From Amoebophrya sp. A120 (taxonomy: Eukaryota > Protista > Dinoflagellata): 64,000 nt of DNA. The stretch is from assembly GCA_905178155.1 (NCBI GenBank), contig CAJINV010000002.1, forward strand, positions 8,877,412 through 8,941,411, written 5' to 3'. Below are positions 1-55,447 of this stretch, piece by piece. Position 1 is the first letter of the stretch, and every line of letters begins with the position of its first letter. A model generated the notes under the pieces. The model did not search any database, was not told where the DNA came from, and saw only the letters and a program-made list of their open reading frames with translations. A program made the translations under genes and the position numbers.

Positions 1-9
1 CGCCTGAGC

Positions 10-16583: not shown

Positions 16584-19500
16584 TCATACTCCTCCTCCCT
16601 TCATCCGGGAGGGTGAATCTCGAATGTGCTGCGCGAACTGCGCTGCCACGTTACCATAGGCGCCTCCCTCCCGCTCCATTTGCCCAAAAGCGTCTTTGTC
16701 CTTCCCGCCCCTTCCTCCTGCTTTCCAGTCGGGCATGATCCCCCCCTGGTCCTCGTATCCGCCCCACCCTTCGTGGACCTCCTTCGCCTGGTCGTGAAAG
16801 TCCTGCTCGTCTTGCTCCCACTGGTCACGCTTCCCCTTCTTCTGAATCACCGCAACGCACAGCACGATGGACAGCAGCCCCAGCACCCCCAGCGGTAAGG
16901 CAATGCACACCCACATCGGACACCCGGCGAGGTTGCCCGAGGCCGGCGGCGCAACCGGCCCCGTGCCCGGGGCCGCGTCCGCCACCGCCTGGCCGCCCGG
17001 AACGCTCAACCCCCGGGCCTCGTCCATCAGCCGCCGGTACTCCGTGCTCATCGCTGGCACCGAGGCGATAGTGCTCCGAAATTTCGCCAACCGTGCGCAC
17101 AGTTGCGGGACACTGAGCAGTTTTGAGTGGACAATGATGGTTTATGATTTCAACAGTACTTCGTTCCTTTCTCGCTTAACCTTTTTTAGCAAGATAAACA
17201 TTCCATGAGTACTACCGTCCGAAACACAGCATTTATGAAATCCTAAAACAAACCTATTGGGACAGAAAGTCAAACAATTAGCACCTAGAGCCCGCAGGAT
17301 GTTGCTATTAATTTCCTTTATTCAAAAAAAGACTTTATCAATAAATACACGCTGAATTTCGCCACTGTCGTTTTCAGCAAGTCGGAATTCGACAAGCACT
17401 GCTCGCCCTCGAGTCTGCAGCACGGGATCAGGTCCTGCGTCGGCGACACTGCGGCGGGGATGGTCCGGCGCACCGATCCGTGCGCGTAGTCAAAATTTTG
17501 CACCACGTATCCAAGAAAAAAACACCATCACAATCACATTTGGGAGGTTTTGCATCAGAAATTTGTCTCGCATGACAAATTTTTCTTGTATTGCAAAAAC
17601 ACAAAGGGAAATCGCCCATAGCTCTTGACTGTGATGCATTTTTGCGCATGACAAAAAATTTTGTATTGCAAAATTGTGCAAAAGTGATTGTGATGGTGTT
17701 TTTTTCTTGAATACCACGTCGCGAACGGGCAAACAGTCGTGGGCCCCCTCGTGGGCCTCCAGCTCGCAGATCTGCGACACGATGCCGTCCACGCGGGCGA
17801 ATTCCCCGTCCACAACTTGCGTGTTTTGTGTCGTGGTGGGCACCGCGTGCGTGGCTTCGTCCGATTTCCGGCGCGCCTGTCGCTTTCCCGTCTTCAACAC
17901 TTCGACGGCGGATGAGGAAGAAGCAGAAGGCTCGTCAATCGCAGTCGTGCTGTTTTTTGCCGCACTAGCCGCGCTTTCCAGATTTGTTGACGCGTCTGCT
18001 TTCGAAGAAGTGGCCGCTGCGTTCTTTTCCTTCTTCTTTTTCTTTCTCTCGCCTGTGTCCAAGTGGGTCGCTTTCACAACCTTCTGGACGAAGCTGCTCA
18101 GTGTTTCCTTGCCCTCGCCAAAAAATCGGTCGTACAGATGAGCTCCGGCGTGCTCGAAAAACCGCGTGGCCACCCCTTTCTTGCCGTCCCGCGGTGCCAT
18201 AAACATGGTCTTCTTCTGGTACTCGTGCCGCTCTTTCACCGTGTCAGGATGTTCCTCCGAGTCCGATTCCTCCTCCACCAAGTCACCTTTTGCGTCCAGA
18301 TGCAGGTGCTGCTGCTTCCTCGCGTGGTGGCCGTGTGCCTGTCTGGACTGGTCTAACTCCAAGTAGGACACTTCTGCGGCCGGTGTTTTGGCACTGGCGG
18401 GTCCTGCTGGTTCCGGCTTCGCATTCCCATCCGTGGCTGCCGGCGTGGAACTGAACGTTTCGGTGGTGGGAGCGGGGGTCGACGCAGATGAAGATGATCC
18501 GTCCTGCAATAAGGACTTGTCGTTTCCAGAACCAGCACCACTTGCTCGCGTAGTGGAACTCGCACTTCCGCTTTCTTCTGCCGTCGAGTCTTGCAGAAAG
18601 GAGGGGGAAGGCGACGTGGAAACGGATGGAGTCGTAGTACCGCTTTCCGTAAGCATTTCGGGCTTTTCCTGCAACGAAGGGGACTCCGTGACGGTAGGGG
18701 TGACAGTGCTGACGGGAACACCCGATGCAGCAGCGCCCTCTGAGTTCGAAAATCCTGCTGGGGGGCTTGCAGTAGTGGTCGCAACCGCCTCTGGGTCTTC
18801 TTGCAGGAAGGAAGGCGAGGTAGCCGGCGGGGAGGTTGTAATAGCAGTAGAAGGTGTTGCCGTAGTGCTGACTGGCGCGTCTTGCAGGACCGAAGGTGCG
18901 GTTGTTGTACCTGCCGGCGTTGTGACCGAACTTTCTGTTGTGGTTCCAGGTGCCTCTTGGAGGAAGGAAGGCGGCGTCGTGGTCCCTTTTGTCGAAGATG
19001 TAGTTGCATTGGTTGCATTGGAGTTTTCTGAAGACATCGTCGGAGACGGCACGATCACGGGAGGAGTCGCGGTGCTCTTGCTTCCCTCCACGGATGAACT
19101 TTCCGACGGTGCAGCCGCTTCCAGAAAAGATGGCGCGGTGGTGCTCGCCGAACTTGACGAGGGGCTGGGTGCCGGTGCTTCGGCTTGCAGCTTTTCGTTG
19201 TTTTCAGGAATGGTCTTGCCTCGCTCCTGTTCGGTGAACGCTGCAGACGGTTCACTTCCTTCCTCCTGCGCAGCCTGCGGCCGTCCGGCGTTTTGATCGA
19301 TGCTACCTCCGCTTTCCGGTGGCGTGGCCGATGAGGATGGACCACTTTGCGGTTGTGTTTCTACTGCTGGCGCTGCCGTGCTGGAACCTGTTTCGGCACT
19401 CCAGCCATTTTCCTTCTTGCCCTCGTCCCCTGGTCCGGCAGGGGTGTTGCTCTCAGGCTTACCGGCATCTTTCCCTTGGTTGAACGACGTGGCGCTGGTC

Positions 19501-21938
19501 GCGTCATCCTTTTCCCGAGACTCCGAAGTAGAACTACCGCTTCCGACTCCTTTGGTCGCACCACCGCTGCTCGTTTCCGGCGTCGGAACAGGTGTTGTTG
19601 TCGTGGTCTCTTCCTCTAGTGACATTGAAGCCTCTGAGGAGGATTTCGTGTGCTCTGCACTGCTGTCGCTGCTTGTCGAGTTGTTGTTTTCGTGCTTTGT
19701 TCCTTGTGCAAAACTGGACTTGTGCAAAGAGAGCTGTTCAGGCGCGCTTCCCAAGGGAACTGTCCCGGTCACGCGGGCGCTACTTGCCTGCTGGATCAAT
19801 TCGCCGTTCGAACCCTTCGTTCCCAGGCCACTACCGCCACCGCCAACATGTTCAGTCGCCTTTTGTTCCGCTACAAGCATGACCTCGTGGCGCGCCTCCT
19901 CGCTAAGATTGGACAACACAGTTGCTGCGGTTTCCTTGGCCTGTTTCGTGTCCGAATTCCCGATCAAGACCTCCATCGCGCCGTCCAGCACGTTCTCGGC
20001 CGTCTGCCGCTGCTGTTCCGCAGACATCGGGACCTCGGGTTCGATCAACCGCGACCCCGGGGCGTAAGGGGCCGCAAATGGCGCCGTAGAAGTGGTCGTG
20101 GTCTGGTCATAGCAGTCCAAGCACCCGCCCGCTTTCTCCTGCAACAACGAGGACGCGGGGGGCGGCGGAGGGGCTCCAGCGCCAGCAGCTCCCTGCTGCT
20201 GCGCGTTTCGCAGCTCGCTGTTTGCGCCATAGTCTTGTTCCTCAGGAGGGGGCGGGGGCGGAGAGGCTTCGGATGGAACCGCCTGCGGAATCGCCGCGCT
20301 TTCCAGCGGTGGCGGTTCTTGGTCGGCCGCCTCCGCTGCTGCTTCGGCCTGCGCCGCCGTTGCGGCGGCCTGAGCGGGAGGCATGTCCGCGATGTTTGTG
20401 GGCGCCGGCGGAGGTGCAACGACCTGGGTGGTAGCAGCCTTTTTCTTGTTGCGCCCGTATATGCAGTCCACGCAGTCCTCCAAACGCGAGGGAGACGGGA
20501 CCGGCCTCGCCAGCGCCAGTCCGGCCGGCATCGGGCCGGCCGTGGTCACGACGGTCGGCTGATCACCAACCTTCTCCGCGAAGCTGCCCGACGGCTGCTC
20601 CACGAGTGGCGGCGGTGCGGGCGGCAAGTTGTCAGCTACCGCGGCTTTGTCCGCGGCTACGTGGGCCGCGAGCGCGGCTTTTTCGGCCGCCGATTGCGGC
20701 GGCAGCGCGATTGCGGGTTTTGTGTGGCTTCCTTCTTTTTCAGTCGGGTAGCAGTCCCCCAACCCAAGGCAGCCTCGATCGGGAGAAGCCTCGCCGTTTT
20801 TCAACTGCTCTCCGGACAGCTGCTCCCCCTTGACGACGGCGGGCGAGGCCATAGGGGCGTGCGAGGCCGTCATCATCAGTTCCGGAGGGGAGGCAGGAGG
20901 TGCGCCGCGATTCGCTTGAGGTCGTGGAAAACTACCTGTGCCAATCGGCGGAGGCCCACCTGGCTGCTCTTCGAGCGCGCCCGTGGAACCGTATAATTGG
21001 CCCTCTGTGCTGGCCGTGGGCTTGTCCATCTCCGCTGTTGAGCCAGTGGATTCATGCGTAGGGGCTTGTTGGGTCGTCGTGCTGCTACCCGTCTCTTCAT
21101 GTTGTTCTCCTGCCGGTGATGACGCTATGTGCGGAGACGGAGTAGTGGTGGACATCTTGTGCTCCTCCTCCAAAAAGCTGGTAGCAGTACCACCAGGCTC
21201 TTTATTCTCTTGCTGGGCCTCCTGCTGCTGCTGCTGCTGCGCTTCCGAAGAGGCTGCTCCCCGCCCTTGCGCCTCCGCTAACGCGGCTGGGTTTTGCGTT
21301 GTGGTCGGGGCAGCCGTTGCGTTGGCCGATGCCGGTGGCGCTGGCATGGTTTGTGGAGTGTTGCTGTCGTCCACGACCGGTGGCAATTCCCCGTCCGCAC
21401 CATAATTGTTGTTGTCATTATCTGCGTTTGCACTGTTCCCTGCGGGGCCGGCGGGCGCAAGGTTCTTACTGTTTTCCTGGAATGATGACGATTTTTCTGG
21501 TGAACTTGGGATGCCAACAGTAGGCTCAGCACGATTTTGCCACCCCGCTAGTGAAGCCGGATTCTGTGTCGTCGACGAGCCCGCTGTAGCGTTGGCCTGT
21601 ACGGACGGCGGGGATGGCATGGTCGCTGGAGGTGTGGTGGGGGTACTTTCCTCCATCGGTGGCAATTCACCATCTGCTCCGTAGTCGTTGTTGTCAGTAT
21701 TCACATTTTTTGTTTTCTCTGCGAGCTGATTTTTGTTATTTTCTTGGAACGACGAAGACTCAGACGATGGACTTGCGTCCAAGCTCGGACGTGGTGCCCG
21801 ATGCAGGTCGAAGGCGGTAACGAAGTCCGAGATTGCGATCCCGAGCGCAATGGCTGACAATGAAACTGAAGCTCGGAAGTATGTCATTCTCTTTACATCG
21901 TGAAGATAAGAGGATACCTTTCTTCGGTTCACAGGCAT
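16584..21938 (-). CDS. Large mucin-like type I membrane/secretory precursor, 3 exons (21938-17714, 17502-17349, 17112-16584)
   Basis: Hydrophobic signal (VSLSAIALGIAISDFVTA), then an S/T/P/E-rich ectodomain. Removing element 17508-17713 plus one CCACG joins ...VRDVVQNFDY.... A GT-AG intron (17348-17113) joins FSVVPQLCARL in frame. This is followed by a TM helix (WVCIALPLGVLGLLSIVLCVAVI) and a cytoplasmic tail. Confidence 0.75.
17508..17713. mobile_element. TIR introner-like element, family A (206 bp), non-canonical intron
   Basis: TIRs TATCCAAGAAAAAAACACCATCACAATCAC / GTGATTGTGATGGTGTTTTTTTCTTGAATA. TSD CCACG at 17503-17507 and 17714-17718. Confidence 0.9.
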
Positions 21939-23263
21939 GATAATAGACGTTTACTTGAAATTGCGAAATAAATACTAGGTAAGGATGTATTGTACGAATG
22001 TGTGCTTGATCTTGCTAACAGCTTCTTGTGACGAAGGGGGCTTCTAAAATTTCTTTTTCGAGTTGTAGGGGGGCGGAACGAGTGCAAAATGAGTACGTGT
22101 GAAACTAGGACAAGAAAAGCTGAAAATCACTGGCCATGCATGATCAAGCAACAACAATGAGGTCTACTTGAACGTTCTTCTACTTGGTGTTCTTACGAAA
22201 GCCTGAACGACGAGGACAACTCCGAGAAGCACGACAAGGTTGCACGCAGAGGGAAGGGGAACAAGACGACCGAGGGCACTTACATTTAAATATGTTCAAT
22301 ATGTACTTTCCGCTTCGCCAACTGTGTACGAAACAAATCGAGCCGAGACAGCATGCATCGCACGACACCGACGGAGTCTAAGGTCTTCTTTCACGATGCA
22401 GCACAGAACAGACTCAAAACGAAAATCCAAATCATGATGCAGCGAGAACGCTAGCGTAAGCAACCGAAGTAGGCCGCGCACAGCGGAAAGAAAACCGAGC
22501 TGAAATGCCACTTGGATGCGCGCAAGCATCTTCCGCCTGAACGATGAAAAGAGACGCGAAAAAGACAGATCTTGTATATTGCAATCTTACCGAGGAGTCG
22601 CTTTATGAAATAGCACGCGAGGGGGCATCAAATTTACATTTATCATCCTGCTACGAAATCAAAACCCGAAGAACAAAATTTGACGTAGAGAAAATGATAC
22701 AAAACCTGAGCTCACGTCCACAGCCTGTGTCTGATATAGCCTCATGTAGTGTCGTTTTGTTTTATCGCTACGATCATGTGAATGTGTCGGGTGCTTTCAT
22801 ATCTTCATGCTGCTTTCACATCGTAAATTTTGGCCCTGGGCACTAAACCAAATTCACAATGGAGCACATGCATGTTGTCGCTTTCTCTATGTGAAATCGT
22901 CTATGTATGTGAGCAAAAAAAGAAGTTTGCGGATTGCACAGGGACGAGGTTGGCTTCCTTTGCGTGAAACTAACATCAAGAAGTGCATGCGTCGCGGGGT
23001 GCGTGTGTCGCCTTGTAGTATTCTTGTTGAAAAGAAGAGACAACTCTATTCGTCAGGTCTGTCTCCAAAGTATCGCAAACAGCAAACGCCGAAGGTCTAG
23101 CGCTTGATAGATGAAAAGGCCCTCTGCTAGCACCTAGCAGCGCTGGGATATCCAAGCACCGGCCTTCAAATTCGGAAGCGGAACGCATTTTTCCTCTCCT
23201 CGCAAGATAAAAAGGAAAAGCGAGATCATTTTATACATCGGTACAAATGTCCGACCGTGTCTT

Positions 23264-25611
23264 CTATCTGCTGAGCAGTGCGTTGCAGACGTCTTCGACG
23301 TGCAGTTTCCTCAAATTTGTGTACTTCTGCCCCGTTCCGACGAACACGACGGGCTGCCCGCTGACGTACACCATGGACAGCGCCGCGCCGACCTTGTCGT
23401 CCACGGTGTCGTACTTCGTGAGCAGCAAGCCGTCGATCCCCCGCGGGTTCACCCGGTCCGGGCTGAGGTCGATCAAGGAGCGGTTGAACTGCTTCACCTG
23501 GTCGATGCCGTCGTTCCCCGTGAGCGCCTCGCCGACGAAGAGCACCAGATCCGGTTGGTTCACGGCGACCATCTTGCTGATTTCCCGCATCAGCGGTTCG
23601 TTCCCCTGCATGCGGCCCGCCGTGTCGATCAGCACCACGTCGATGTTTTCCTTGGCCGCGTGTTTCAGGGCGTTCTTCGCAATCTCCGCCGGGTCCTTGC
23701 CGTAGCCGCGCTCGTACAGCTGCGCATCCAGACACCTCGCGTGGGTCTTCAGCTGCTCCACGGCGCCCGCGCGAAAGGTGTCACAGGCGGCGATCAAAAT
23801 CTGATAGGTATGGGTTTTCAGCTTGAAGAAGTAGTTCTTGGGGTATAGAAATGAATACTTAGCAGTGGTCCTGATGATGTTACACAGGGAAAGAACCTGC
23901 TCTGGCAAGTTCTCGTTTGAGACGAAAATTTAAATTTTTCCGAAGCAGACTTGTTCAAAAAAAAAAAATGAATACGCTCAGCCCGCCCTGCTTCTTCAGA
24001 TGATAAGCCACCTTCGCTAGATTTGTGCTTTTCCCGACCCCGTTGACTCCGATGAACGCGATGGAGAAGGGCCGCCCCGCGGCCTTCGCCTGCAGCGCCG
24101 CCCGCATGACGTCGACGCTTTTCTTCGGTGTCAGCAGCTGCGATATCGCCCGAACCATCTCGCGGTAGATGGTTTGCCGTATGGTAGTCCACGCCTCCGT
24201 TGTTTGGCCAACCAATGACTGGCGCACGCTCTCGAGCAAGCGGTCGGCGACCTGTTAAGTCGGATGTCGTGTGACTTCAAGATGATGTTTTGTTCTGCGT
24301 ATCTATGTCATTGCAGAACAGCAAGCAACGATATTCGTTTTCGTATTCACTTCGTAGCACCCCTCAACATCTCAACGAGTACCTCTTTCGCCACGTTTTT
24401 GTTAAGCAATTGGTCTCGTATTGGTGCGAGCAAGGGTGCCAAGTCGTCCTCTGTCAGCTTCTTTCCGCCGGTGAAACCTTTCATTTTACTGCTCAGCTTC
24501 CCCCAAATGCTGTTAGGAGCAGTATCGTCCACAGGCTCGATCAGAACCGGCTGTTGATGTTTTGCATGTGTAATATGGATTGTGTTGATGCTGATGCATT
24601 CTAAGAAAGTCCGTCGATTGCGAAAGCAAAATTGAAACTCGAAAGGCCCATCTACCTCGCCCGAGACATATTCAGAGGCATTAAGCCCCGTCGTGTGTAG
24701 CCCCTGTGAGAAAGCATTCATTTCGCAAGCTTTTATCTATACGTACCTTCTGATTGATCTCCGGCTCCCCGTCGTCATCGTCATCCAGGAACTGCGCGAG
24801 AGCTGCCGCGTTTTGGCTCTCTTCCGAGGCTTCATCCTTGCCGTCGCCGCTCTTCGAGAAGTCCAACTTATCTATGGCCTGCTTGTTCACCTTTCCGGCG
24901 CCGACCCACTCGCGCTTCCCCCGCCGCCCCGAAGCCGCGCCGTCTTCCGACTCCTCGGATTCCTTCTTGTCTGCGCCGTCGCTCACCCCGACGCGTTTGC
25001 CCCGCTCTGTGTCAGCGAAGGACCGCATTTCCGTCTTTTTCGTCAGCCATTCCCGGTCGAACTCCAGTTTTATACGCTCGAATTCGAGCTTGAAGTCGTC
25101 CCTGAACCTCCAATCTAACCGGTCACAGTTCGGGTCCAGCGTATTGGCGAAAGCGGCGGAAACCTGCTGGAGCAACCGGTCCAGGTACGCCATTTGCAAG
25201 ATACCCTGGCGTTTTTTTTAATTGCATGATAGACAAGCGAAAGTCTACTTTCGTCATTTCTAGAGTCTTCCACCGGCTTTCGTGCTACTTATCACAGGAA
25301 GAGATCTTCAACACCGATTGAACAATGCAAATGATCGTGTTGTTGAAAACATAGTTACACAAACAAATCATATGTCGTGCAACGAAAAATCCTGTAAGTA
25401 CCTGGTATATCAGCACAAACACGAGCTCCAGGTCGTTTCGTATTTTGCACTTCAGTTTGTAGTTGTCGACTTGCGTGGACGCACTGTCATCGTTTTGCTC
25501 CTGCAGAAGGACCGTCTTGATGAATTTGTCCACCGGGTCCTTGGCAAGCTTCAGTTCCCACCGGAACAAAACCACACCGGTTTTTGTGAACACAATGAAA
25601 TCGTCGATCAT
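23264..25611 (-). CDS. SRPRA: Signal recognition particle receptor alpha subunit, 5 exons (25611-25402, 25205-24747, 24550-24383, 24251-23976, 23800-23264)
   Basis: Longin N-terminus MIDDFIVFTKTGVVLF and GTPase motifs GVNGVGKSTNLAK, ACDTFRAGAVEQL, DTAGR, TKYDTVDDKVGA, GTGQKY. Four GT-AG introns were checked and are in frame. Confidence 0.95.
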
Positions 25612-26252
25612 TTTTTCGGTAGATGCTTCTTGCAAGTCTATGTGAAGAAAGATTTTCACTACCGTGCAAATGTCATTGTTGAAAAATACTACTAAATGGC
25701 CAGGAATATTAACTAAAAAAGGGCGAAACTAACGAACTCTACTGAAACGGTCAAACCAAAATTTCTCTTTTTACTTCGACTTCGAAAAGAAACTACTTAA
25801 ACTGTGAAATGGCAATATTCCGGCATGCTGACTAAGCTCTCCTCTACCATAACGGGCTGATGCGTTTTCAGAAAAAACTCTCTCGAGGCGAAGGCCCAGT
25901 TTGTTTAGATCTGTAATTGCTCTTCAAGGGCCAGAATGATTAGATCTTATTCCGTCAGAAACCTCGAACTACACGCAATGTATGCGTGAGAACCCGCAGT
26001 TCATTGTCATTCGATCCTGCAATAAGCTCGTCTCTGCGTTGGAACACGATCCAGACGCGACACAGAAATGGCTTCCGCGGCGCCTACTTCTCGGTAGCTA
26101 TTTTTACCACCTCGCTCGCGATCTTTCAATTTGAAAAAAAATCCTGCAAACAAGCGGGAAGCTTCACTTACTTTCTCGTCGCAGCAGTTTATCGTCGATT
26201 AAATTCTACAATAAGTTCAAGTTTACACGGCACTACAAGAACCTTGATTCAA

Positions 26253-26615
26253 TCAGAACTTCCCTCCCAGAAATACGCGCTGCCCGTCCACCCAGCCCCA
26301 CTTGCTACCCACGGCGCTGCGGCCGCAAAGCACCTCTACTGCGCTGAAGGATTTATTCGCGGGTTTACTTGCGGTTGCCCCAGAGGTGGCAGCTGCCGAG
26401 TCGGCGATTCTTCCCTGCTGCTTTTCGCCTTTTTCCTCCCACTTAATAACCTGCGACCAGGTATTGTGCAGAACCTGTGGAGTTATCTTTAGATTTTCCT
26501 GCTCCGCTGCGCTGGGAATGCGAGACGACGTTGCCTTCAGATTCTTGTGCTGGTTGCGATCCCCGTAGGTCATCACCCAACGGGCGTTCTTTTGCGCGCC
26601 GGTGTGTTGAGGCAT
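26253..26615 (-). CDS. Hypothetical protein
   Basis: 120-aa ATG ORF co-oriented with its neighbours and flanked by more AT-rich spacers. No recognised domain. Confidence 0.35.
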   Translation of the reverse strand: MPQHTGAQKNARWVMTYGDRNQHKNLKATSSRIPSAAEQENLKITPQVLHNTWSQVIKWEEKGEKQQGRIADSAAATSGATASKPANKSFSAVEVLCGRSAVGSKWGWVDGQRVFLGGKF

Positions 26616-27017
26616 GTTGGTGATGACTGCGAAATATCTGCAGGCTTCTTTTTGTACAGAATCGAAAGTAGCTGACAACCGCGAGCAAACGTTGGCACCA
26701 CGAACAAGCTAAATCTCAGTTTCTGCATCTGAAGTCGTTTGCGCGGAGATGGAAAGATGTCCGATCCCTAAGTAATCTGCAGGACAAAATATCGCCATTT
26801 TGATCTACCTCTCCTGTTGTGGGCCTGGGCGGCCCTCTTTGACAAAAATAAAAAAAGCGGCACTCATTGCACACTCAAGCGAAGTCTTTCTCTTCCACAT
26901 TCACCTTCGACTCATCTCTTACAAAAAACAAACGAACATCCCGCGCCGTCCCATCTCATCTTCCAAAGACACGGAAGATCGGGAATTCAACTGATCTGTC
27001 GTGTATCTGCATCTTCC

Positions 27018-27356
27018 CTATGCCCGTGTGAGGGTGCACATGCCATCCGTCGTTAAGTGCCGCAGTTCTGTTTCAGTGATGACCTGGAGGGAGATCGTTT
27101 TCCCGCCCAGGCGGCCTTCCCAGTAATTCTCGCCCTTTTTGTCCATTTTGTGTGCGAGGGAGCCAGATTTAGCACAAAGATTCGGACAGCACCCACAACA
27201 CACGCCGGATTGCTCGGAGATCGTGATCTGGTGGTCTGAATTTCGGCTGTCGAAGGAAATCACCCACGTGCCGTTGTACCAACAACTCCCACACGAGTGT
27301 GTCGAATGCCATTCCCCGGCAAGGCTGTGTGAAGAGGAGGACGAAGATCTGCCCAT
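27018..27356 (-). CDS. Small Cys-rich hypothetical protein, possibly N-myristoylated
   Basis: MGRSSSSS start, LAGEW motif, CCGCCP cluster and alternating beta-strand-like segments. Confidence 0.5.
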   Translation of the reverse strand: MGRSSSSSSHSLAGEWHSTHSCGSCWYNGTWVISFDSRNSDHQITISEQSGVCCGCCPNLCAKSGSLAHKMDKKGENYWEGRLGGKTISLQVITETELRHLTTDGMCTLTRA

Positions 27357-28284
27357 AGTACCAAGGATCTCTTTGCTTCGTCGGGAATGAACCAGTGGCT
27401 TATTTTCCTCTTGATGCCGTCGAGGTGTGGAGCAATTATGGTTCGTGGATGAATCGTCTCCTGTCATTGAAGATTACAAGACTTTGTATTTCAGTCATGG
27501 CTCAGTGACAATTTGCTTTGTCTTTGTTTGTGTATGGTACAAAGTGGGCGCTGAGAAACAAGTGAGTGCAAGCAGATCCCCATAATCTTGTCTGGCTGAC
27601 GGACGAAGCAATAAGCACGACTCAGTGTCCATTTTTCTTTTCCGTTCACTCGACGCTCAGAGAAAACAAAAAGCGGCGATCCTGATGCTGCGGTCAACTT
27701 AAAAGCATCCAGTATGAGGATGAACACGAGTGCCTTACCAAAAACAGGCTTCGCTGTGCAAGGTCCCACTAAGACAACATAGTCCGATTGGTTTTCTCAT
27801 GTGATTGAAAGACTGGTGACAAAGGCGGGCGGGCTACTCCTTATAAAAATTCAACCGGCGTTCGATAAGGTGTTAGATGTCAGGCGAATCAGCAGTTGGC
27901 AGGCAGGTGTGGTTGTACTGTAATATTCGCTGCTATGCGAGACGAACAAAAAGATCTTGAGCATGTACAAATGCGAAATAGTCCATGGCGGGGGTCTACC
28001 CTCCGATAGATTCGCCACTCTATTCCGATAATTTTTGCGCGTTTGTAATATTCACGAACTCCCACTGTCTCCAAAGTTTCGTCTGATTTACCTTTGCTGT
28101 AGTTACAGAGATATGGATACTGGTCGTCACTTCAAAAAATCGCGACTGCTTATAAAACATTCTCATGAAAATAAAAGTGTGCTTCTGGGTGGAGAGGACC
28201 TGAAAAGACCGAGTTTCCCAAATAAATGCGACCCCAAAACTGCTCCCCACCAGACCTTGACACGCATCCAATCGTCACGACCAC

Positions 28285-29558
28285 CTAGCACATTTGCACC
28301 TTGATCTTCTGCTGGTTCAAGGTACCGCCATCGTACTTTTGGATCGCCGAGGAAGCGTCTTTCTGGGTCGTGTATGTCAGGACGAATTCGCCGGTCTTTC
28401 CCCGCACGGTGTCGCAGCTCTCGATCCGTCCACATTGCTGGAACGCGTCCCGCAGGTCGCTTCCCGAGATCTGCGCCGGCACGTTGGTGACCCGGATCAT
28501 GCAGTGCGCTCGGTTACCTCCACGGTCCCGGGAAGACCGGTTGTTCCCGCGGCTGTTTAGTATTATTTTTTGTCGCTTCTTAGGCAACCTGGCAAACAAG
28601 TATGACTATGAACCTCCATTTTGTATATGCAAAATAATACAGTTCCAGTTCACGAGTTATCCAAAATACTAGTAATCAATGCGTTACGACTCGTAGGTTC
28701 TATCATGCCGATCAAATCAAAGAAGCCCAAAAAAAATCTGTACCGGGACGGCTTTTCCTGTTCTTCGTCCTTGTAGTACCCCCGGGTATAGTCCGGCTGG
28801 CCCCCACCTCGGCTCTGGCCGGCGTCGTACGGTTGGTAGCGGGGGTTCTGCGGGGGCGGCTGGCCGTACCGTGGGTTGCTGGGGCCGTACCCGTAGTCGT
28901 CGTAGTAGCGATCCTTGCCCCCACCGCGCCGGTCGTCGTAGTAGTCCCGGGGCCCGCCGCCCTTGCCGTAGCCGCCGTACCAGTCCTTCCCGTAGTAGTC
29001 GCTCTCGTACCAGTCGTTCTTCCCCGAGTCCCGGCGCCCGTAGTTCGTGCCGCGGTCGTAGTTCCGCCCGGAATTACTGCCGCCCTTTTTGTCGAACTTC
29101 TTCTTCACGTCGTTCTCACCACCCCCCTTCTTGTCCCCCTTCTTGTTCTTCCCCTTGGACTTGTTGGACTTTTTCGCGTTCTTGTCCGCCTTCATCACGT
29201 CGTCCAAACTCATGGCCAGCTTGTCCTCGGTCTTCTTGCCGGAATCCGCAGCAGGAGCGTCTTCCTTCTTCTCCTTAGGCTCCGCTTTTTCCTTCTTCTC
29301 GGGCTTCTTCTGGTTCTTCTTCCCGTCCTTGATCAAATCTTCGAGGGTTTTTTCCTCCACCACCTTCTTGGAATCCTTCTTCTCCGCGGCCTCCTCGCCA
29401 TCCTCGGTCTTGTGCTCGCCCTCCTTCTGCTCCTTGTCGAGCTTCATCACGGTGGACTCTTCGTTCTTCCCCTCCTCGTTGGAAGATTTGTTGACTTCGT
29501 CAAGCCCACTTTCCTCGGCCAGCACCTTCGGCTCAGACTGCTCCAGGTCCGACGTCAT
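28285..29558 (-). CDS. ALYREF/Yra1-like RNA-binding protein, 2 exons (29558-28744, 28588-28285)
   Basis: DKLAMSLDDVMK (REF-N/UBM-like motif), an R/G/Y/D-rich region and a C-terminal RRM (IRVTNVP...DLRDAFQQCGRI...AIQKYDGGTLN). In-frame GT-AG intron 28743-28589. Confidence 0.75.
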
Positions 29559-30634
29559 TTTTATTTTCACAGTAGTTGTAGTACAAGATCGATCTTTGTG
29601 GATGGAAACAACTGCGGTTCTTTTGTTGAGATCTTCGAAGAAAAACACAGTGGACAGAACTGACCACTTCGTGACTACTTATATCTTCCTAGGAGGGATA
29701 TTAGTAGATACCCGTAGTTTATTTCGGTAAAAACGACCAAGGAAAAATTTTTATTGGTACTCGGTGAACAAAAGATGTCGTTCTGTCGACCTGGACAAAA
29801 GTTTGAAGAGGGGTGCGTGCAATTTGAAAAAAATTATTAATAGTGGGTGGGGGGCGAGACGCGATGCGTCAATGACATCAATGATACGAAATAAACTTTT
29901 GCGGGAATGGAAACGGTTACAGAAAGTTCGAAGATCAGGGTGAATCGGGGAAAATTCTGATCGTGAAATTTGAAACTCGTTGTATTTGAGGAACTTAGGT
30001 TTGCGACGATTTTCTATTGCTTCACGAAACCATCTCACCATTTTCAAATTCTACACGCAAATTTGTTTCGCTTTCTGGACCAATTCTTTGGCTTGATGAA
30101 TTTTGCATAAATTTAGCGTTCCGTACGACGTAGTGCCAACACGATTAATCATGCATATTAAATAGGCGCCTTGTAGAAAGATAGAGGGGCGATGAAACGG
30201 TAAAGACCGGAACACCCAAGGCGGGGAGCCACAAGAGTAGAGGGAGACACAAATCCCGAGGCGGGTTTTTCTTTGTTTTTGTTCCTCACGTGAAATAAAT
30301 TCAACAAAATATTGTACATCTACATTTATGACAAAGCTCCTAAAACAAATCATGTTCAACTCCCGACAAACGTAGACCATATGTGAACAACTGAACGGCG
30401 ATGCAAAGACAGGCTGCCATGCACTTTCAACGTCCGATGAAATCTCGATTTATTTCAGAAAACTGCGCAACAAGTGAAACAAATGTAAAGTACATTACTA
30501 TAGAACCGATAGAAGTAGAACCACTATGACTAAGACTATGCAATAGCACACATTTCAAAAATAAAAACCCAAAACTAGAACCTTGTTGTAAGTATACGAT
30601 ACTGCTACATTGTAATCCTCCGGTCGATTCGATC

Positions 30635-31414: not shown

Positions 31415-31901
31415 TTTTTTAGTTAAAGTCAAACTTTTTCAAATTTTCTAGTCCACTTTTCCCGACGAATCAATTGGCCCAGACCCCGTATGATCATCGG
31501 TCATCGAATTGTGAAAAACAAAAAACGTCCCGTCAGAGGCTTGCTGTGTGTTGTGGAGAAAATCCTTTGACTTTCTGTTCTATAGGAATATCAACGTTCT
31601 GGGATGACAACAGCATGTTTTTTCAACGTCCACTGCATGTGGCAATGTTTTGATTCTGCGAAAAGGTCACGAGACGGAGACGAAACACGATAGCATTCTA
31701 CTTCCTCTTAACGGTCTACCTTTACGATGATGCATGACGATTTTAAAGTAACACGGTACTTTGTGCTATTGATTAGCAGCGGTGCGGATCTACGAGAACA
31801 TTAGAGAAACAACGGATATTGATACAACCGCGCGCCTGCGAATTCAGAAAAGACAACGGCTCATCGCGTTGACGGCTGAGATGTCCATCGTTTATGACGA
31901 G

Positions 31902-33661: not shown

Positions 33662-34799
33662 GGTCACTTTTTGCTGAGGCACTTACGTTTGTTAACAAAC
33701 TACAGCTGAAAAAAAGTAAGTACCAGAAAAGTGGTGGCAAATCTAAATATTCCACGAATTAACGGTCCCATACTTTCACTTTCCACAAGAGTAGAGGTCC
33801 GGTTTGTTTCTACACCAACATTTGATCCTCCAATGTTTCCTTGCTTCTTCTGTGGAATAAAGCATGTACGAAAAGCAAGAGAAACGAAGAGCCCATGACT
33901 CGAAGCTAGCAGAGGCGCACAAGAGGGAAACGAAGTTGAACAAAAAAATTCTTCCCGACACTGCGAACTCGCATATGCCAGTGTGGCTTTTCTAGACACA
34001 CTATCCCAAATCTTCGTGCGCGATTCGTCCTTCGGTCCTCCTTCATTCATACAGTTTTCTTATTTCCCTGCACCTATCTTCTCTATCATCCACACCTCTA
34101 TTTCTTGATCTGTTCTTTTGTGCTGCGAGTCTGTAATTTCTCTTCTTTTCTAATCGTTCCTGTATATTGATCAGTCGTGCCCAAATTCTATCCTTTCTAT
34201 TGCGTCTTCTTGGTTGCGCTCCAGCACCTGGTGATCTTTTCAGATTGATGATGCTGCGGCAAGAGTGACCTAAGCCTCGACACCGGTTGCTACCTTTTGC
34301 AACGACAATATCTAGGTCCTTTCATGGCGACTGGCGAAACTGAAATCTTCACGACTTACCGCATGACCCTTCTTTGTGCAACCTCGCAATTGTCTGACAT
34401 CATAAGAGGCGGTTTTTCATTTTTCTTGTAGTGATAGTTTTTCCTCACATAATGTTCATCATGATCATCATATGAATGAAAGCAAATCGTGCAAACTGGA
34501 TGGGTGGCGCAAGAAATGAAATATGTGCTGCTGCGACTTGTCGCAAAAAAGGACACTTATTTTGCTCCACCCCTAGAACTTTCTCTGGCAATAACTCTAC
34601 AGAAAGTCAATCGAAAGTGAAGTCTCCGAGAAACTACAACAGTTGTGCCAACGCCGCCTGATCGCTAACGCTAACTTATGAGGATGAAATCTCGGCATCA
34701 CCGCGCCCTTCGCTTGTTTTTCCTGGCAGCGTATAACTTCCCATCTCTGGCATTGGCAACATACTGCTTCTCTCGTCTTCTCCTTGTGCAGCGCACAGT

Positions 34800-41776: not shown

Positions 41777-44700
41777 TTATGTGGGCAACTTCACTCCTCG
41801 GTCGCAGACCAGGCACAAAGTCACCTGGTTGGACCCGTCCGGCGGGATGAACTCCCCGGGCAGGATGCCCAAGTTCAGTGTGACGTTGACCAATTTCCGC
41901 GCGTTGCACTTCGGACAGGTCGTGCCCGTGGGTTCACAACTTTTCACCGCCCGCGGCAGCCAGACGACCTCCTTGCATTTGGGGAACTGGTCACACGACA
42001 GCCGCCAGTTGGTGTTATCCTTCACTTTCAGCACCATTTGCCCGTTCCGACACTTCCCGCACTTCGCCACCGCCTGCTGCGGCCGGCCGCCGGCCAGCTG
42101 GCAGGTCGCGTGCCGGCACTGGAAACAGCGCATGTTGGCGGGGGTCGGAAGGTTGTCGTTCGGAAAATCCGGCGGATTGTTGAAGCAGTAGGGGCAAAGC
42201 GTGTGCTGCGTGTTGGTCACATTGTTCTTGATCAAGACCGTGCCCGTGTTGCAGATGGGGCACGTGAAGTTCCGGTCGGTGATGGTCTTCTCGCTGGCCG
42301 GGGTTCTGGAGGGCAGCAGGAGCAGCGTGTTGCCGCCCGCGGTGCAGTTTTGCTGCAAATTGCACCGAAACATGTAGTTCTGCACCACCAGCTGTGGCGT
42401 GTTGCTGTTGGAGGCTGAATTTCCCTGTTTTCCCTTGCCTTTTTTCTTCATCGCGGTCTTCTTCTTTCCCTTGCCGCCCTTCGCATTACTAGTGCCAGCA
42501 TTTGCTCCCGCAGCACCACCCCTCGAGGACCCCTCCGCCCCCTCCGCAATCGTGATGGCTGCATTCGAGCCGCCCTTGTTCCCGCGCGGCACGGTCATCT
42601 CTTCCTGCGCGAGGAGGTCCAGCCGGCCTTGGCCGCAGCGGCACGGCACAATCCCGGCCTGGATCAGGCGGACATTGGTGTTAGGATTGTTCGAAGTAGA
42701 TGCATTCGGAGCGGCAGGCTGCCCATGTGGTCCTCCTCCACCTCCACCTCCCGGGCCGCCGAAATTCGTACCCGGACCCCCGCCCCCTCCGGGGAAAGAC
42801 CCACCTCCCGGGCCTCCAGGAGGGGGGAAGTGGGCAGCTCCAGGCCCACCACCCGCTCCCGGAAAACCTCCGCCCGGACCCGGTCCACCTGGCGCACCTC
42901 CAGGTCCCCCCGCACCACCTGGACCTCCAGGACCCGGCCCGCCGCCCGCACCCGGAGGTCCACCAGCGGCGCCCGGCGGTCCGCCTGCTCCCATGTGGAA
43001 GTTGCCCATCACGTCTGCGAAGTACGTGCCCAATTTCCCGTCCAGCGTCCCCGGATTCTGGCTGATGTTCACGAACAGCTGCTGCATGTGCTGCAAGCAG
43101 TTCTGCAAAAACACGTTCTTTTGCTGCTGGTTCAGCGCGATCCGCGTCATCTCCGCCTCCATCGCCGCCCGCAAATCCGGCTTCGAGATGTCGTACCCCA
43201 GCAGAGCCGCGAACTCCTGATACCCCTCGACCAGGGCCAACCCGAGGGTGGTGGGCGCGAACCGGTTTTGGTTGTTCTTCACCGAGTAACTGCGGTCCTG
43301 AATGGTCTGGATGTGCGTGGCCATGGTGGCGTCCGTGCCAATGCCAAACCGATCCATCAACGCGATCAGCTCCGCTTCGGTGAGCAGTTCCGGCGGCTGC
43401 GTCGTCCCGCTGGTCATTTGCAGCTCATCCACCACGCACGGCGTCTGATTCGCGTGGTGAAACACGGGCTCCAACACTCGATTCACCACGCAAAGAGCCG
43501 CGGGTAACAACGTATCCGTTCGCCCCCAACGGTCGTAGGGGTAGACTTCCAAAAACCCCTTGTCCGTCACGCGCAACCCGTTCGCGGTGAACTCCTCCTC
43601 GTTTTCCGGGGGGTTGGTACTCGCTGTCACGGAGGTCTTCTCGCCCGTCGCGTCGGGGGAAAGGCAGGCTAAAAAGTGCCGGGTGATGAACTCGTAAATC
43701 TTCCACTTCCACCCATTGATCCCGTTTTCGTTCTCCTGCAAAGTCTTCACCGGGTGGATCGGCGGGTGGGCCTGGTCGTCCTTCGGCCCGTTGCGCGGGT
43801 TGGTGAACCGATTCAAATTATGCACCTGTCCGTTCACGAACAGCCGGTTCGCCACGTAGTGGCCCCAACTGTTGTGGTTTGCGTGGACAATCGCGAGCTG
43901 TTTCAAATCGATACTAGGGTGGAACTTCTCCGTCTCCGTCCTCGGATAGGAGATATAGCCCGCTTGGTACAGCTCCTCGGCCAGTTTCATAGTTTGCGCG
44001 GAGGGGATTCCGAAATACGTACTACATTTTTTCGTCAGTTCAATGGTGGCCAGCGGGATCGGGCGCCAATGCGTCACGTTGCGGATTTGCACGTCCGTGA
44101 CAATCAGTCTGCGGCTGTTCGCGGACTCCAGTACGTCCTCAAAAAAGTTCAAAACCGCAACCCGATCGAACAAGCGGTTGCGGTGCCAGGTAAACTCAGT
44201 CAAGGACGGGTCTCGGTTTATTGGCTGATTGTTGTTGTTTGCGTTATTTGTCCCTCTATTTCCCCCGCCGCCGCGCCGGGTATTTCCTGTTCCTCCAAAG
44301 TTGTTTTCCGAACTTTTGTTCGCCTCGAAGTTCGTGATTTCGTCCTGCGACAGATTGTGCGTCTTCACGACCAGTTTGATTCCCCAGAACGGCTCGGGCA
44401 GGAAATTTCGGATCAGTTGGTACCGTTCCTATCCCACGAAAAAACTGTTTCACTGTGATGATTTTGCAATATCTGCATCACAAGTTTCTTACACATGACG
44501 CGGAAAACTTGCCATGCGCGCTTCCCAAGGGAAAACACGCTTCAAGATCCGATGTCTTGCAGGTGTAGCAAGACAAACACCTTGCTGCTTCGTTCTGTGC
44601 ATCACAAGTTCACAGTGAAACAGTTTTTTCTTGCGATAGTTCCACGACGAACCCCAATGTCGGAAACTGACAGGGGCCGTACGACTATCCTGAGTAAAAA

Positions 44701-46429
44701 CGTACCCACACCATAGTTGTCATGCAGATTTGCCATGACAGGAACATGTGTGATGCGCAACCCCATGAAAGGCATTTTCAATCGTGTTTGGGAACTTGTA
44801 ATGCTGTAAACAGGATCAGCAGATCGATTTGTGATGCGGCTTTCCTTGCTAAATTGCACTACCTTACAGGCTGAAACTTGTCATGCGTGACTCCCAAAAC
44901 TCCTAGGTTTGTGTTGCAAAATCCCCATCTTGACTCTGGTGTGGGTACGTTTTTAATCGGGCTAACGACAGTAACTGGTTCGCCAAGTCCGGGAACCTTC
45001 GCTGGTACCGGAGACACATAAAGCGCGTGAAAGCTGCGCCGATTCTGAGATCGATCTCCGTCCGCGCCTCTACGGCGTCCGCGAGGGCTTTGTTCGGGAT
45101 TTGCAAATTTTGCACGGCGTTGGTCAAGTCTTGGAAGGTTAAAGCGGAAAAGACCGCCCGCTTTATGACCAGGTTGGGGTTTTTGTTTAGCGCAACCTCC
45201 AGCACTTCGTACCCGATCGCTTCCCCCTCCCGGTCACAATCCAGCCACAGAACGATCCAGTCGGACTCCCGGGCTAACTCCTCGATCATCCTCTTCAGGG
45301 GCAGCATGTCCCGGGGCACGAACCGGTTCACCGGTTGGTTCAGAAGCAATTCCACCGGAGGCGGCCCGTTCTGCCAGGATTTGCACGCCTCCGGGAAGTC
45401 GATCTGCATCAAATGTCCACGAACGGCGGAAACCTTCATCTTTACCTGCGTCCCCTGTATTTGATAATTGAACTCGTCCACGTTCACGCCGTTGAAGCCC
45501 TGGCCCCCGATTCGGCGCCGATTCACGTTTGCATTCCGCGCTAGGTGCTCGGTGATGCCCCGCTGCACGGAGGGTTTTTCCGCGATGTTCATGATTCGGC
45601 AATTCGGAAAGGGGGGCAGATTGGCGTTGTTGTTCTGCCCATTCTGGTTGAAGAACGCATTGTTCTGGTTGTTTGCTCTGCGCCGCGGCGGCATCTTCGC
45701 GATTTGCGCAGCGACTTTGTCGCTGGGGGAGGGACAGGGGGAAAATGAGGTGCAAGTTGATACACTGGTGTTGGTCTCCGAAGGCGAAGTTGTCTGACAA
45801 TCCTCCACGTTGTCAGGAGGCAAAGGATTAGTTGATGCAGGGCCTAAATGGGCTGCTTCAGAGGAAAACAGAGCTCGGAGATGCAGTTCTGTCTCCTCTG
45901 AGCCGATTCTGGAGCCGCAGGACGGAGTTGTCGTATCGTGTTCGTGTGGCGCCTTTCGTGGGGTAGAAAGATCTTCCGCCGCCGCGTCCTCAAGTATTTT
46001 CGATGTGACGGTCCCATTTCCGCCTGCTGGTGTGCCACTGCTAAAATGTCGCTTCAACCGTCGCGGGTCATCATGATTTTCGCCTCTAGAAAGGCGTCGC
46101 TGTTGCTGCTTCACCAAATCAAGTCGCGAGCTTTGTGCGCGGCAGCTACCGAGCGTCAGATGTTCCGCATCCGCCCAGACATTTCGAAATATGCCATTGG
46201 GGCGATGCGCATCTACATATTCAGTAGAAATATCAAACGCAAGTGTGCGAAAAGTGCTGAGATGATGGCGTAAAGTTGTAAAATGCCTCGGCAGGCGCGA
46301 TTGAAATTTGTCCTGTGGACGAAAAAAAGTCAACAAGGTAGTGGAAGAGTAGTGCGTTGGTGGAACAACGGAAACGTAAGGCTTGCTGGCCGTGGATAAA
46401 CTTCTAGTCAGACGTCCTCCTGCACTCAT
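41777..46429 (-). CDS. TOP3A: DNA topoisomerase III alpha, 3 exons (46429-44965, 44680-44639, 44424-41777)
   Basis: TOPRIM motifs IAEKPS and WLDCDREGE; IDLRIGAAFTR; spliced SYGPCQFPTLGFVVERY; catalytic GYISYPRTET; AHPPIHP; GIGTDAT; C-terminal C4 zinc ribbons (CPYCFNNPP, CDQFPKC). Confidence 0.95.
44430..44638. mobile_element. TIR introner-like element, family D (209 bp)
   Basis: Ends TATCCCACGAAAAAACTGTTTCACTGTGA / TCACAGTGAAACAGTTTTTTCTTGCGATA. TSD GTTCC at 44425-44429 and 44639-44643. Confidence 0.92.
44686..44964. mobile_element. TIR introner-like element, family E (279 bp)
   Basis: Ends TATCCTGAGTAAAAACGTACCCACACCA / TGGTGTGGGTACGTTTTTAATCGGGCTA. TSD ACGAC at 44681-44685 and 44965-44969. 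Colinear with 47350-47628. Confidence 0.92.
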
Positions 46430-47091: not shown

Positions 47092-50000
47092 TTACGCTTT
47101 GTTTTTCTTCCTTCTCTTGGCTTCCAGTTTTCCCATTCTGGCTTCCTTATCGGCGTTATTCCCCGTCGGTATGCGCTTTTTCACCGAGATCTTTTGTCCG
47201 AACTGCAACAAAGCGTTTTCCCCCTCTGCCAGCGTCTGTGCCTCCTCCTCGTCGATGGTGGTAACCTGCCCGCCAATGTTGGCGTCAATGTCGACTTTCT
47301 TCACTTCAGCGCTGCTGCCGGAAGCGTTTTTCCTCTTCTCCTCCATCTGTATTAAGAGGAAAAACGTACCCACACCAGAGTTGTAATGCTGATTTGCAAA
47401 GACAGGAAGACTTGTAATGCGCATCTCCATGAGCGGAATTTCTAGTCGTGATTTGGCATTTGTAATGCTGTAACCAGGATAAGCAGATGGATTTGTGATG
47501 CGTTAGCCCTTGCTAACCTGCACTACAGTACGGGCTTGAACTTGTGATGCATGAGTCCCAAAACTCCTAGGTTTGTGTTGCAAAATCCCCATCCTGACTC
47601 TGGTGTGGGTACGTTTTTACTCAGGATAATCTGTCGTTTGACCTCATCAGACAGCATCGGCTCGAGCGCCTCCGACCACACACGGATTAGGATATGAACT
47701 GCAAAAATGTCTGGGTCTGGGAGATTGCGAGATTTGTCATGCTTGTCTGGCATGACTCTGAACTCTGTGTTGCATGGCCGCGAAGAGCTCCTCCTCGGTG
47801 TCATGCAAAAACGCAGTTTCTCATGCGGAGTACGCAACTCAGAACCATGGAAAAAACTTGTCATGCTTGGCAGCGCATTATAGTGAGTTCACTACTCCCT
47901 TTCCTGCATCACAAGTTTCCAGACCCAGACATTTTTACATTTGATATAGGAGCTTCGTAAACAACGCGTGGGTTTGCGACACAGGAAGCTGTAACTCCTT
48001 CGACACCTGCTCGAACGTCTTCTGCTGGCAGCCGACGGCGAGAAGGATGGCGGCGTGCACCGCGGAGAGTTGTAAGTTGCAGGGCGCACCTTTATTTGTC
48101 GCTGGTGCGCCACTGTTGACAGCGGCATTGCTGCTACTCGGTGCGACAAATTTCCCGTCGAAATACAGACTCGCCAGCACCGGGAGCAAATCCTGAATCA
48201 GCGCCACCTCGGCCCGCTTGTTCGCGAAGAGCTCGATGCGGTGCAGGTCGTGTCTCGTGACTTGCTGCAAAACGCAGTTCAGCAATTGCTCAGAGTGGGA
48301 AACACGATTTTCATCTGCATCCGTCAGAATTCCAGGTGCTACCGAGCTCGAGCTCGGCTGCCCGGCGACGGAAAGTGCGAGATTCAGTGGCAGTTTTTGG
48401 AACTGTTGCGTTTTCAGCAGTCGCAGGAACCTACACCGGAAATCTTTGTGGAACTCGGCCAGCCAAGTCGCGGTCGTCGCTGAATGTCGCTTGTTGGAAC
48501 TTGTAGAAGCTTTACCACCACTTCCCGTGGCCACCATGGACGATGAGCCCATTCTTCTCAACAGAATTCCGCTGTGTTCACCAGTCACGTCGTTCGCCGT
48601 CTGCCGGATGTAGATCGGGTCAAACTTCAGCTTGTTGTGCCAAAATTCGAACAGCGGCAGAGTAACGCCAAAGCTGGTTCCGAGCCAGTCGAGCTCGAAT
48701 ACGGGTTTCGTGTCTTGGACGGACGAAAGCAAGGCCGGAATCTCCTCTTTTACGGTCAAAGCTTGGGAGTCGGCGGCCGTGGAACTTTTACTATTTCCCT
48801 TTCCTGTTTTTGACTCCTTTTCCTCCTCATCTCCGTACCCTCCCGCCGGCACCATTTCCAGATTGCACCACTTGATGAACTGGGAAACCGCCTCTTGACC
48901 GTAGCCCTGCCGCATCATCTGCGGGTGCGTCGCGATGCGGACAATCCTGGCGCCCTTCAGAGAACCGAAATTAGCGTCGGAAAACTGCTGCGAGATCGTC
49001 CAGGAGATCATGTCCCCGCTTGGACGAAGGCCGCGGGCGAGCGAGTTCGCCACCGCCTCCTTGTTCAGCGCCCCCTCGGTCGCGACGTGCATCGCGACCA
49101 GGATCTCTGGAATCGTATCGGACTCACCGGAGTCGTTCTGTATTGTAGACAAGCACTTTCGTAGAATTTGAAAGTATTCGAGGCATAGAATGAGCAAATA
49201 TGCTACTCTAGCTAGAAACGCCGCGGTGGTACAACCTCTAATGGATGCATAAAAACCAAGTCACCAATAGTAAACACAGCGAAGTTATTTTCTATACCGT
49301 TGAATCCTCCCCGTCGGACTGGTCCGAATCTTCCCGACTCGGCGCCAGCAAGACGAATAGGTAATGCCCCGGCGCGTCGGACAACAAGATCAGATCGTTT
49401 GGACTGTTCTTGTAGTGGCTCGCGACAAACAAACCCGTTAACTTCTTTAAGAACTTCTCCGAGGCCCCGTGGTAGCTGAACAACGCCGTTCGGTCGACTA
49501 GGAACAGCTCGCACTGGTCCGGCATGGGGCACCCTACCTTCTTCATTTTTTCCAGTGCTTTTTTGCTGGAAACCGATTCCGACGCGTCCAGGAGGCACAA
49601 CTCGTTCAGCCACGCCTCCACCGCGTCGTTCAGGCAGTATCGAATCGGCTCTTTCAATTCGATCTCCGCAGAGAGTTTCTTCTGGTGTTTCAGATCCTGT
49701 AACAGTTTCAAGGACAAAGACCGACCGGTCCCCTCGTACCCGTTCACGGTGGAGGACATTAACGTCAGGTATGGCCCGAGCATCTGCTTGATGATGGGGA
49801 GCGGAATGGCCGCCGCCTCGTCGATGATCAGCATCTCGGCCTGGGAGAGCGCGGTCCCGTGCTGCGAAACGATCTCCGGCGGGATGTACTGGATCGTTTG
49901 GCGGTGGTTTTTGAACACGTTGACCCGGACGATGTTGCCGCGTTTGCTGTCCCCGTGTTTCAAATTCAGATTCTGGTTGGTGTTTGATTTCTCCAGATCC

Positions 50001-54889: not shown

Positions 54890-55447
54890 TTTTGCGATTT
54901 GAAGGCTTTTGCTGCGACAATGAGCTTGGTATCGCGTCAAGCAAGGATAGCGGAAAGCTATTCCGCTAAGTTGGATTTTGAGAGATAGCAGCAGAAACGA
55001 GTTGGAAGTAATTCAGTACAGTCAACATTTTTTTCACCGCTAAAACTTCTTCATGCGCTCTAGTGCGAAGATATTCTCTCAGAACGAAACTTTTCGCAAA
55101 TTTGCACTCCTCGGTCGACCACCACCACGCATCAGTATCTATTTGCAAAATAGAAAACTCACACACACGACCAGCTCTGGGCGGACGCGGGGGGCGCTGC
55201 GCTACAGATGGCCAGCTTCAAAACCTGCCAAAAGTGGATAAATCTTCGAAATGTTGCCTCTCTTCTAAACAAAAGAACCATATTCCTGTGCGCAGTCTCG
55301 CAAGCGAGATGTTGTCCGTTATCTGCTTAAGTTGTTTACTGCGCTGTAGTAACGTCGAGTGACCAGTGACATAGCTAAAACTGAGAGCAAGAGCAAGTCG
55401 TAGTATGTTGAAAACAGGTACCCCTTATTTCAATAAAAACCCACTCC

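Follow-up and report, generated by a model that had tools for sequence, protein, structure and literature searches.

In Amoebophrya, more than 60% of introns were reported by Farhat et al. 2021 to be non-canonical, with RNA-seq support (PMC7789003, whose accessible text underlies all statements on that paper made here). The introner elements (IEs) of strain A120 carry inverted repeats (IRs) composed of TAT, seven variable nucleotides and at least three A residues, between direct repeats of 3-5 nt, one example of which is 5 bp; 29,850 repeated introns were described, and the position of their borders was left open. Strains A25 and A120 possess almost the full set of spliceosomal proteins, and U1 snRNA was not detected in them; the nine predominant non-canonical motifs listed for A25 (Table S4) all start with TT, and its IRs start with TTA and two purines. 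Among the 21 of 58 A120 rows available from Gozashti et al. 2025 (PMC12130899), most listed families are DNA transposons with terminal inverted repeats (TIRs), of unassigned superfamily and with many non-canonical sites, and a further Amoebophrya genome is described, in the accessible part of 10.1101/2024.09.05.611473, as having canonical introns and U1. Here we describe eight inserts, E1 to E8, in coding exons of a 64,000-nt stretch of DNA (the window; all coordinates are counted from its position 1). An earlier note on this DNA had mentioned the IR- and direct-repeat-bearing introns of Amoebophrya in connection with them, and this proved to be the same class: E1-E8 are A120-type introner elements, and since the class, its motif, its 5-bp repeats and its RNA-seq support were already published in 2021, the window supplies an example and not a discovery. 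We put at about 0.58 the probability of the whole reading in which these introners, likely non-autonomous DNA transposons, are removed by the host spliceosome, with a predicted hairpin between the element ends taking the place of GT and AG. The issue touched is the precise removal of introns that number in the tens of thousands and have arbitrary ends, in an organism in which no U1 snRNA was detected. Either answer matters, be it a spliceosome able to do without the first G and the last AG or a second machinery for splicing.

Like the A120 elements, E1-E8 have TAT-N7-AAA IRs, 5-bp repeats at exon borders, a length near 250 nt, non-GT-AG ends and no internal transposase; they fall into repeated families, their removal is RNA-supported (in RNA-like contigs for five of the eight, and partly for E8) and they coexist with GT-AG introns, with no difference in kind. 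Beyond the published text on the A120 elements, some of which its figures may show, go the 5-bp length of the target-site duplication (TSD), the cut register at E4 and a common subterminal motif. The host fits the A120 type as well, in that the top TOP3A hit is from A25, the motif is TAT and not TTA, and the scored genes lie on one strand. The A25 elements resemble E1-E8 in IR and direct-repeat anatomy, non-canonical ends and a T at intron position +2, but differ in their TTA-plus-two-purines IR, their shorter length (a mean of 120 nt for non-canonical introns) and their mostly TT donors. The introners of Micromonas and Aureococcus (Huff et al. 2016, in its accessible part) are likewise similar to MITEs (miniature transposable elements with inverted repeats), with TIRs and TSDs, and lose one TSD copy so that the exon is restored; their splice sites are canonical ones, either carried or co-opted, so that a matching target is needed, whereas E1-E8 need none and do not pair one carried splice site with another co-opted from the TSD. 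The nonconventional introns of euglenids, in the descriptions accessible to us, also form a hairpin of paired ends and have TSD-like repeats, non-canonical ends and a removal route left open, but they pair CAG with CTG, follow a pyrimidine/purine junction consensus and leave as circles; the ends of E1-E8 are TAT...ATA, without CAG/CTG pairing. The non-GT/AG introns of the tunicate Fritillaria (PMC13326754, accessible text) are non-canonical genome-wide and of proposed MITE origin, but have defined ends, AG-AC and AG-AT, and a modified U1/U6/U2AF route, whereas both ends of E1-E8 are arbitrary. Nor do E1-E8 have the ends of U2-type introns, in which a GT (or GC) donor is combined with an AG acceptor.

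The earlier note had claimed eight TIR elements of 206-322 bp with 5-bp TSDs; all eight are present at these lengths and seven have a perfect 5-bp TSD, the exception being E4, whose two copies agree at 3 of 5 positions. All are given on the minus strand:

E1: element 17508-17713 (206 bp), with TSD 17503..17718, minus strand; perfect 5-bp TSD, in a predicted membrane-protein gene
E2: element 32216-32537 (322 bp), with TSD 32211..32542, minus strand; perfect TSD, in TRAPPC6
E3: element 32800-33050 (251 bp), with TSD 32795..33055, minus strand; perfect TSD, in TRAPPC6
E4: element 33097-33356 (260 bp), with TSD 33092..33361, minus strand; imperfect TSD (3/5), in TRAPPC6
E5: element 44430-44638 (209 bp), with TSD 44425..44643, minus strand; perfect TSD, in TOP3A
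E6: element 44686-44964 (279 bp), with TSD 44681..44969, minus strand; perfect TSD, in TOP3A
E7: element 47350-47628 (279 bp), with TSD 47345..47633, minus strand; perfect TSD, in NAT10
E8: element 47693-47946 (254 bp), with TSD 47688..47951, minus strand; perfect TSD, in NAT10

The G+C content of the elements is 34-48%, and their terminal 26-mers agree at 21-25 of 26 positions. Fifteen of the 16 ends begin with TAT and one with TAG; every left end has A at positions 11-14, with T at the mirror positions, giving the motif TAT-N7-AAA. E6 and E7 are 84% identical, and E3, E4 and E8 have common TIRs. A scan for a 5-bp direct repeat with a TIR match of at least 18/26 returned eight hits, seven of them elements, compared with 0, 1, 1, 0 and 0 hits in five block-shuffled windows; the remaining hit, at 2514-3704 (TIR 18/26), was treated as chance, and a weak candidate at 54605-55042 was dropped because its TIRs match at 10/26 only. 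The eight elements are clustered in four genes, and none was detected in 1-17000 or 48000-64000. End-to-end hairpins were predicted for the three elements that were folded (E1, z -8.25; E4, z -7.57; E6, z -2.97). In a DNA-like run, X5, the summed contig depth was 18,892-168,350 in element bins versus about 27 on the flanks, a figure that is not a copy number. The elements are thus short, non-coding and of high copy, with TIRs and a TSD of fixed length, as are MITEs and other non-autonomous TIR DNA transposons, and are likely to be such transposons. The statement of the earlier note that the window encodes no transposase holds for the 22 window open reading frames (ORFs) scanned with Pfam, in which no transposase family was found; a search of a viral collection gave no hits for the E3 family, and no autonomous copy was found there or in the window. 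Two hits in that collection for the E6 family were judged to be chance, having no partner TIR with a TSD and no similarity to the window.

Eleven sequencing runs were listed, none recorded as RNA, of which seven were aligned to the window. Four of these (X1-X4) come from one sample and consist of assembled contigs whose RNA nature was guessed by a tool; they skip eight GT-AG introns, five within 16000-34500 and three in a NAT10 contig of X1, and were therefore treated as mRNA. X5 also consists of assembled contigs; the window assembly may have been made from it, in which case it is not independent. As a check the earlier note had asked for transcript junctions that lose each element plus 5 nt, and such junctions were seen for E2-E6 and partly for E8. 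At E2, 327 nt were skipped in X2, X3 and X4; at E3, 256 nt in X1, X2 and X3; and at E4, the joint 33091->33357 skipped 265 nt in X1, X2 and X3 with 1 nt of ambiguity, each count being that of the element plus 5. Across E5 and E6, an X1 contig holds 42 letters between the pieces that end at 44965 and 44424, as many as loss of both elements with 5 nt each would leave. A piece of another X1 contig, the one that skips the three NAT10 introns, starts exactly at 47947 (record position 394), at the edge of E8, its partner side being absent from the rows listed; the RNA junction of E7 was likewise absent from the listed rows, its frame being restored in silico, and E1 had zero cover in all four RNA-like runs, which gives no evidence either way. 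In X5, the region is covered at 23-31x, and the contigs listed extend for 26-36 nt into E5, E6, E7 and E8 at about 25x and do not branch at the junctions; element-free genomic alleles, which the earlier note had named as the sign of DNA-level excision, were absent among the 15 of 169 X5 joints listed. That the eight inserts belong to the A120-type introners and are lost from the RNA we hold to be very probable.

The genes that carry the elements are the following:

16587..21950, minus strand: E1 host gene, a large low-complexity predicted membrane protein, delineated in silico and without a Pfam hit
31900..33682, minus strand: TRAPPC6/Trs33-like gene with E2-E4, its 3' end at or beyond the lower bound
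41780..46429, minus strand: TOP3A with E5 and E6, its start codon uncertain (Pfam: Toprim, Topoisom_bac, Zn ribbon)
47095..51780, minus strand: NAT10 (Pfam) with E7 and E8 and GT-AG introns at 49138-49297, 50473-50630 and 50989-51351

Well-scoring coding frames lie nearly all on the minus strand across the window. When each element plus 5 nt was deleted in silico, continuous frames resulted in TOP3A, NAT10 and TRAPPC6. The claim that deletion of the element with one TSD copy restores the frame in all eight cases thus stands for these three genes and falls short at E1, where the hydrophobic C-terminal exon is out of reach by that deletion alone and is linked to the host gene by a further GT-AG intron, 17113-17348, predicted in silico; if E1 were retained, the frame would continue through the element and stop just past it. 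If retained, seven of the eight elements would shift the frame, and E2 contains stop codons whichever of the three frames is read. The conserved TOP3A motif that the earlier note saw rebuilt is borne out, the junction motif S[YWF]GPCQ being present in 83 of 120 homologues, and the next conserved pair following at the same distance of 8 residues in 77. The best TOP3A match among the listed hits is Amoebophrya A25 (58%, E 3.7e-173), the others being at most 48%, and the flanks of the TOP3A elements are 58-75% identical to A25. The TRAPPC6/Trs33-like assignment is supported by a Pfam TRAPP match (E 1.1e-4), which is weaker than the curated cut-off, and by TRAPPC6A in the PDB (E 4.9e-5). As the earlier note had stated, no cut register yields GT-AG (0 of 48, from six registers at each of eight elements).

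A pattern built on E3-family ends retrieved 157 loci (L001-L157), among an estimated 530 stretches, from one metagenome assembly; the invariance of TIR positions 1-2 and 11-12 among these loci is imposed by the pattern used, and one family is over-represented. These loci and the window have element families in common, at up to 95% identity, and no gene locus, so that the A120-type invasion reaches a further genome. From 188 elements, 180 remained after removal of eight with fewer than three TSD matches, duplicates or short flanks; with each flank scored separately by a coding model for which genes of the window served as training set, 91 were frame-clear, and 89 could be oriented. The 5-bp repeat was perfect in 154 of the 188, its copies agreed at three or four of the five positions in 26, and a 6-bp repeat was found in none. 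The frame required 5 mod 3 bases between the flanks, as is the case when the element plus 5 nt is lost, in 84 of the 91 clear cases, and in 105 of 133 elements when no coding threshold was applied. A GT-AG reading was possible in 3 of the 89 oriented elements versus 3.7% by chance; the 72 oriented perfect TSDs showed no evident base bias and no preference for AG or G; and relatives of E3 lay in the same orientation in 16 cases and in the opposite one in 20. We reasoned from these three observations that precise removal is independent of target sequence and of the direction of insertion. The claim that the elements leave as non-GT-AG introns at arbitrary targets is thereby upheld, both by the junctions seen in transcripts and by the absence of target bias in the second genome.

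Two raw-read runs, X9 and X10, gave only 91 and 2 mapped reads, nearly all of them partial matches to element ends, and appear to derive from another strain. About 75-80 of the X9 reads match an end of the E8 family (window 47917-47951) with different flanks; a related element is present at another locus in the RNA of that run.

Where the TSD is perfect the cut cannot be placed, but at E4 the two target copies differ and the register can be read. The E4 transcript keeps the upstream copy, which agrees with the KQ of human TRAPPC6A. This places the donor cut 0-1 nt ahead of the hairpin and the acceptor cut 5-4 nt past it, a result shown for E4 only. The intron ends are accordingly TA...TC at the 0-nt register or, at the 1-nt register, CT...TT. 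Read at this second register, the element donors are N-TAT (N-TAG in E6), and the donor of all eight RNA-supported canonical introns in the window is GTAY; the element donors thus equal the host GTAY minus its G, a likeness that we noticed post hoc. The canonical comparison set (23801..28743, minus strand) holds five RNA-supported GT-AG introns, four in a gene with an SRP54 domain and one at 28553-28743. In the metagenome, intron phases 0, 1 and 2 at the 1-nt register were found in 43, 20 and 26 of 89 elements, a non-uniform distribution (p 0.008). Among mismatches in imperfect TSDs, 10 of 17 were synonymous (p 0.003 against an expectation of 25%, p 0.09 against a fairer 40%), and no excess is claimed. 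Elements whose target copies differ expose the register directly in existing RNA-seq, which offers a cheap route to the cut site; E4 supplies the first value, and the prediction is an N-TA donor with the acceptor 4 nt past the hairpin.

Within the elements, an octamer, GCAWSACA, occurs 30 times in 2,060 nt, versus 7 times in the remaining 61,940 nt of the window; it spans families with unrelated repeat cores and lies mostly 40-59 nt from an end. Relative to transcription it is perfect at 51 versus 50 of 89 at the two ends. It was rejected for now as a branch point, being equal at both ends and carrying at least two mismatches in all nine canonical introns. Because of this equality, and its absence near the 3' ends of those nine introns, a role at the DNA level, for example in transposase binding, seems the likelier one. 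In L001-L157, stem pairing is weaker at TIR positions 4, 5, 7 and 10 (49-73 of 89), with the TAT and AAA blocks well paired; the TIRs pair as a short terminal stem, a loose zone and a long stem.

On the reading that we favour, a transposase encoded elsewhere would insert the element, in either orientation and into arbitrary exon sequence, with duplication of 5 bp. In the pre-mRNA, the inverted ends are predicted to pair and to bring the exon ends together; cuts placed as at E4, which fixes them to within 1 nt, would fall 0-1 nt before the hairpin at the donor and 4-5 nt after it at the acceptor, and since the element takes along as much sequence as one duplication holds, the exon is restored. 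The donor would be recognized as N-TAT at the 1-nt register, that is, as GTAY without its first G, and the acceptor would be set by its distance from the hairpin. The register at E4, together with the likeness between the start of the elements and host donors, somewhat favours a relaxed ordinary spliceosome over a dedicated excision or splicing system, on the strength of one locus; the dedicated system put forward in the earlier note is the less favoured of the two.

Several points weigh against removal by the host spliceosome. No mechanistic study, and no lariat, branch point or spliceosome dependence, was found for Amoebophrya introners in the literature, which was mostly that outside subscription papers. 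The register comes from one locus in one sample, with the 1-nt and 0-nt values inseparable; the likeness of NTAT to GTAY was seen after the fact; and the phase bias could be produced by target choice. A codon likelihood over the 17 imperfect TSDs, summed by hand, gave a weak peak at the middle registers and its lowest value at the 0-nt donor, the values lying a few units apart. Table S4 of PMC7789003 gives symmetric motifs for A120 (NT-AN), which may reflect placement by the aligner. All of the RNA evidence consists of assembled contigs whose RNA nature was guessed. In the metagenome stems, no signature of selection for pairing in RNA was seen (75 G-U versus 61 A-C, p 0.26), and neither the TIR nor the subterminal motif showed 5'/3' asymmetry.

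A route without the spliceosome, in which an endonuclease with an RNA ligase, or a transposon-derived protein, reads the TAT-N7-AAA hairpin and makes its cuts at set distances from it, as has been proposed for euglenids, would account for the dispensability of both the first G and the terminal AG, for the strong hairpins and for the occurrence of both orientations. It would also suit the failure to detect U1 snRNA in A25 and A120 (PMC7789003) and the exit of euglenid introns as full-length circles, as given in the accessible accounts. Yet elements of the A120 type and of the A25 type alike have T at +2, in agreement with the host donor, tunicates are reported to splice non-GT/AG introns by a modified spliceosome (PMC13326754, accessible text), and no candidate enzyme was identified in this analysis, so that we regard such a route as possible and doubtful. 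More tentative still is its specific form as a ruler, in which the hairpin would be read, cuts made 1 base before and 4 after it regardless of sequence, and the exons ligated, leaving no scar in either orientation; the factor concerned may bind GCAWSACA.

Removal from DNA, akin to that of internal eliminated sequences, in an unsampled life stage or nucleus would let transcripts arise from element-free templates, and the TIR and TSD anatomy suits a transposase; there was one DNA-like run, and contigs drop rare variants. The X5 contigs, which may not be independent, nevertheless pass from the flanks into E5-E8 at a depth that fits a single copy, and the joints listed include none that is element-free; we consider such excision improbable. 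A hairpin with a direct repeat is a textbook substrate for template switching by reverse transcriptase, and both features are present here in evidence that is presumably cDNA-derived; the apparent junctions could on that account be artefacts of switching across the hairpin between the direct repeats, the genes being broken or the elements retained. E4, however, was removed exactly despite a repeat matching at only 3 of 5 positions; the elements of the second genome lie, in 84 of 91 cases, in flanks that are still coding and in register for +5; seven of the eight window elements would be frame-shifting if retained, with E2 bringing stops in all frames; and the TOP3A flanks are still 58-75% identical to those of A25. 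Artefact is therefore the least credible of these explanations, and very improbable.

Elsewhere in the window, an Rfam scan gave 0 matches. A translation initiation factor IF-3 with an N and a weak C domain (Pfam) is encoded at 14369-15823 on the minus strand; it is presumably organellar, and of interest in view of the debate on the mitochondrial genome of Amoebophrya. A 1,657-codon frame at 1197-6167 (minus strand) has a HicA-like domain near its N-terminus (PF07927, E 3.9e-9, above the cut-off), which is unusual for a eukaryotic protein. Another frame of 1,779 codons, at 34803-40139 (minus strand), contains a 15-bp tandem array at about 39090-39570 and Gln/Pro-rich repeats, with no Pfam hit. 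At 1-230, a GC-rich palindrome, GCACGGCCCGGGCCGTGC, occurs four times in a repeat unit of about 130 bp, with inverted arms around each copy.

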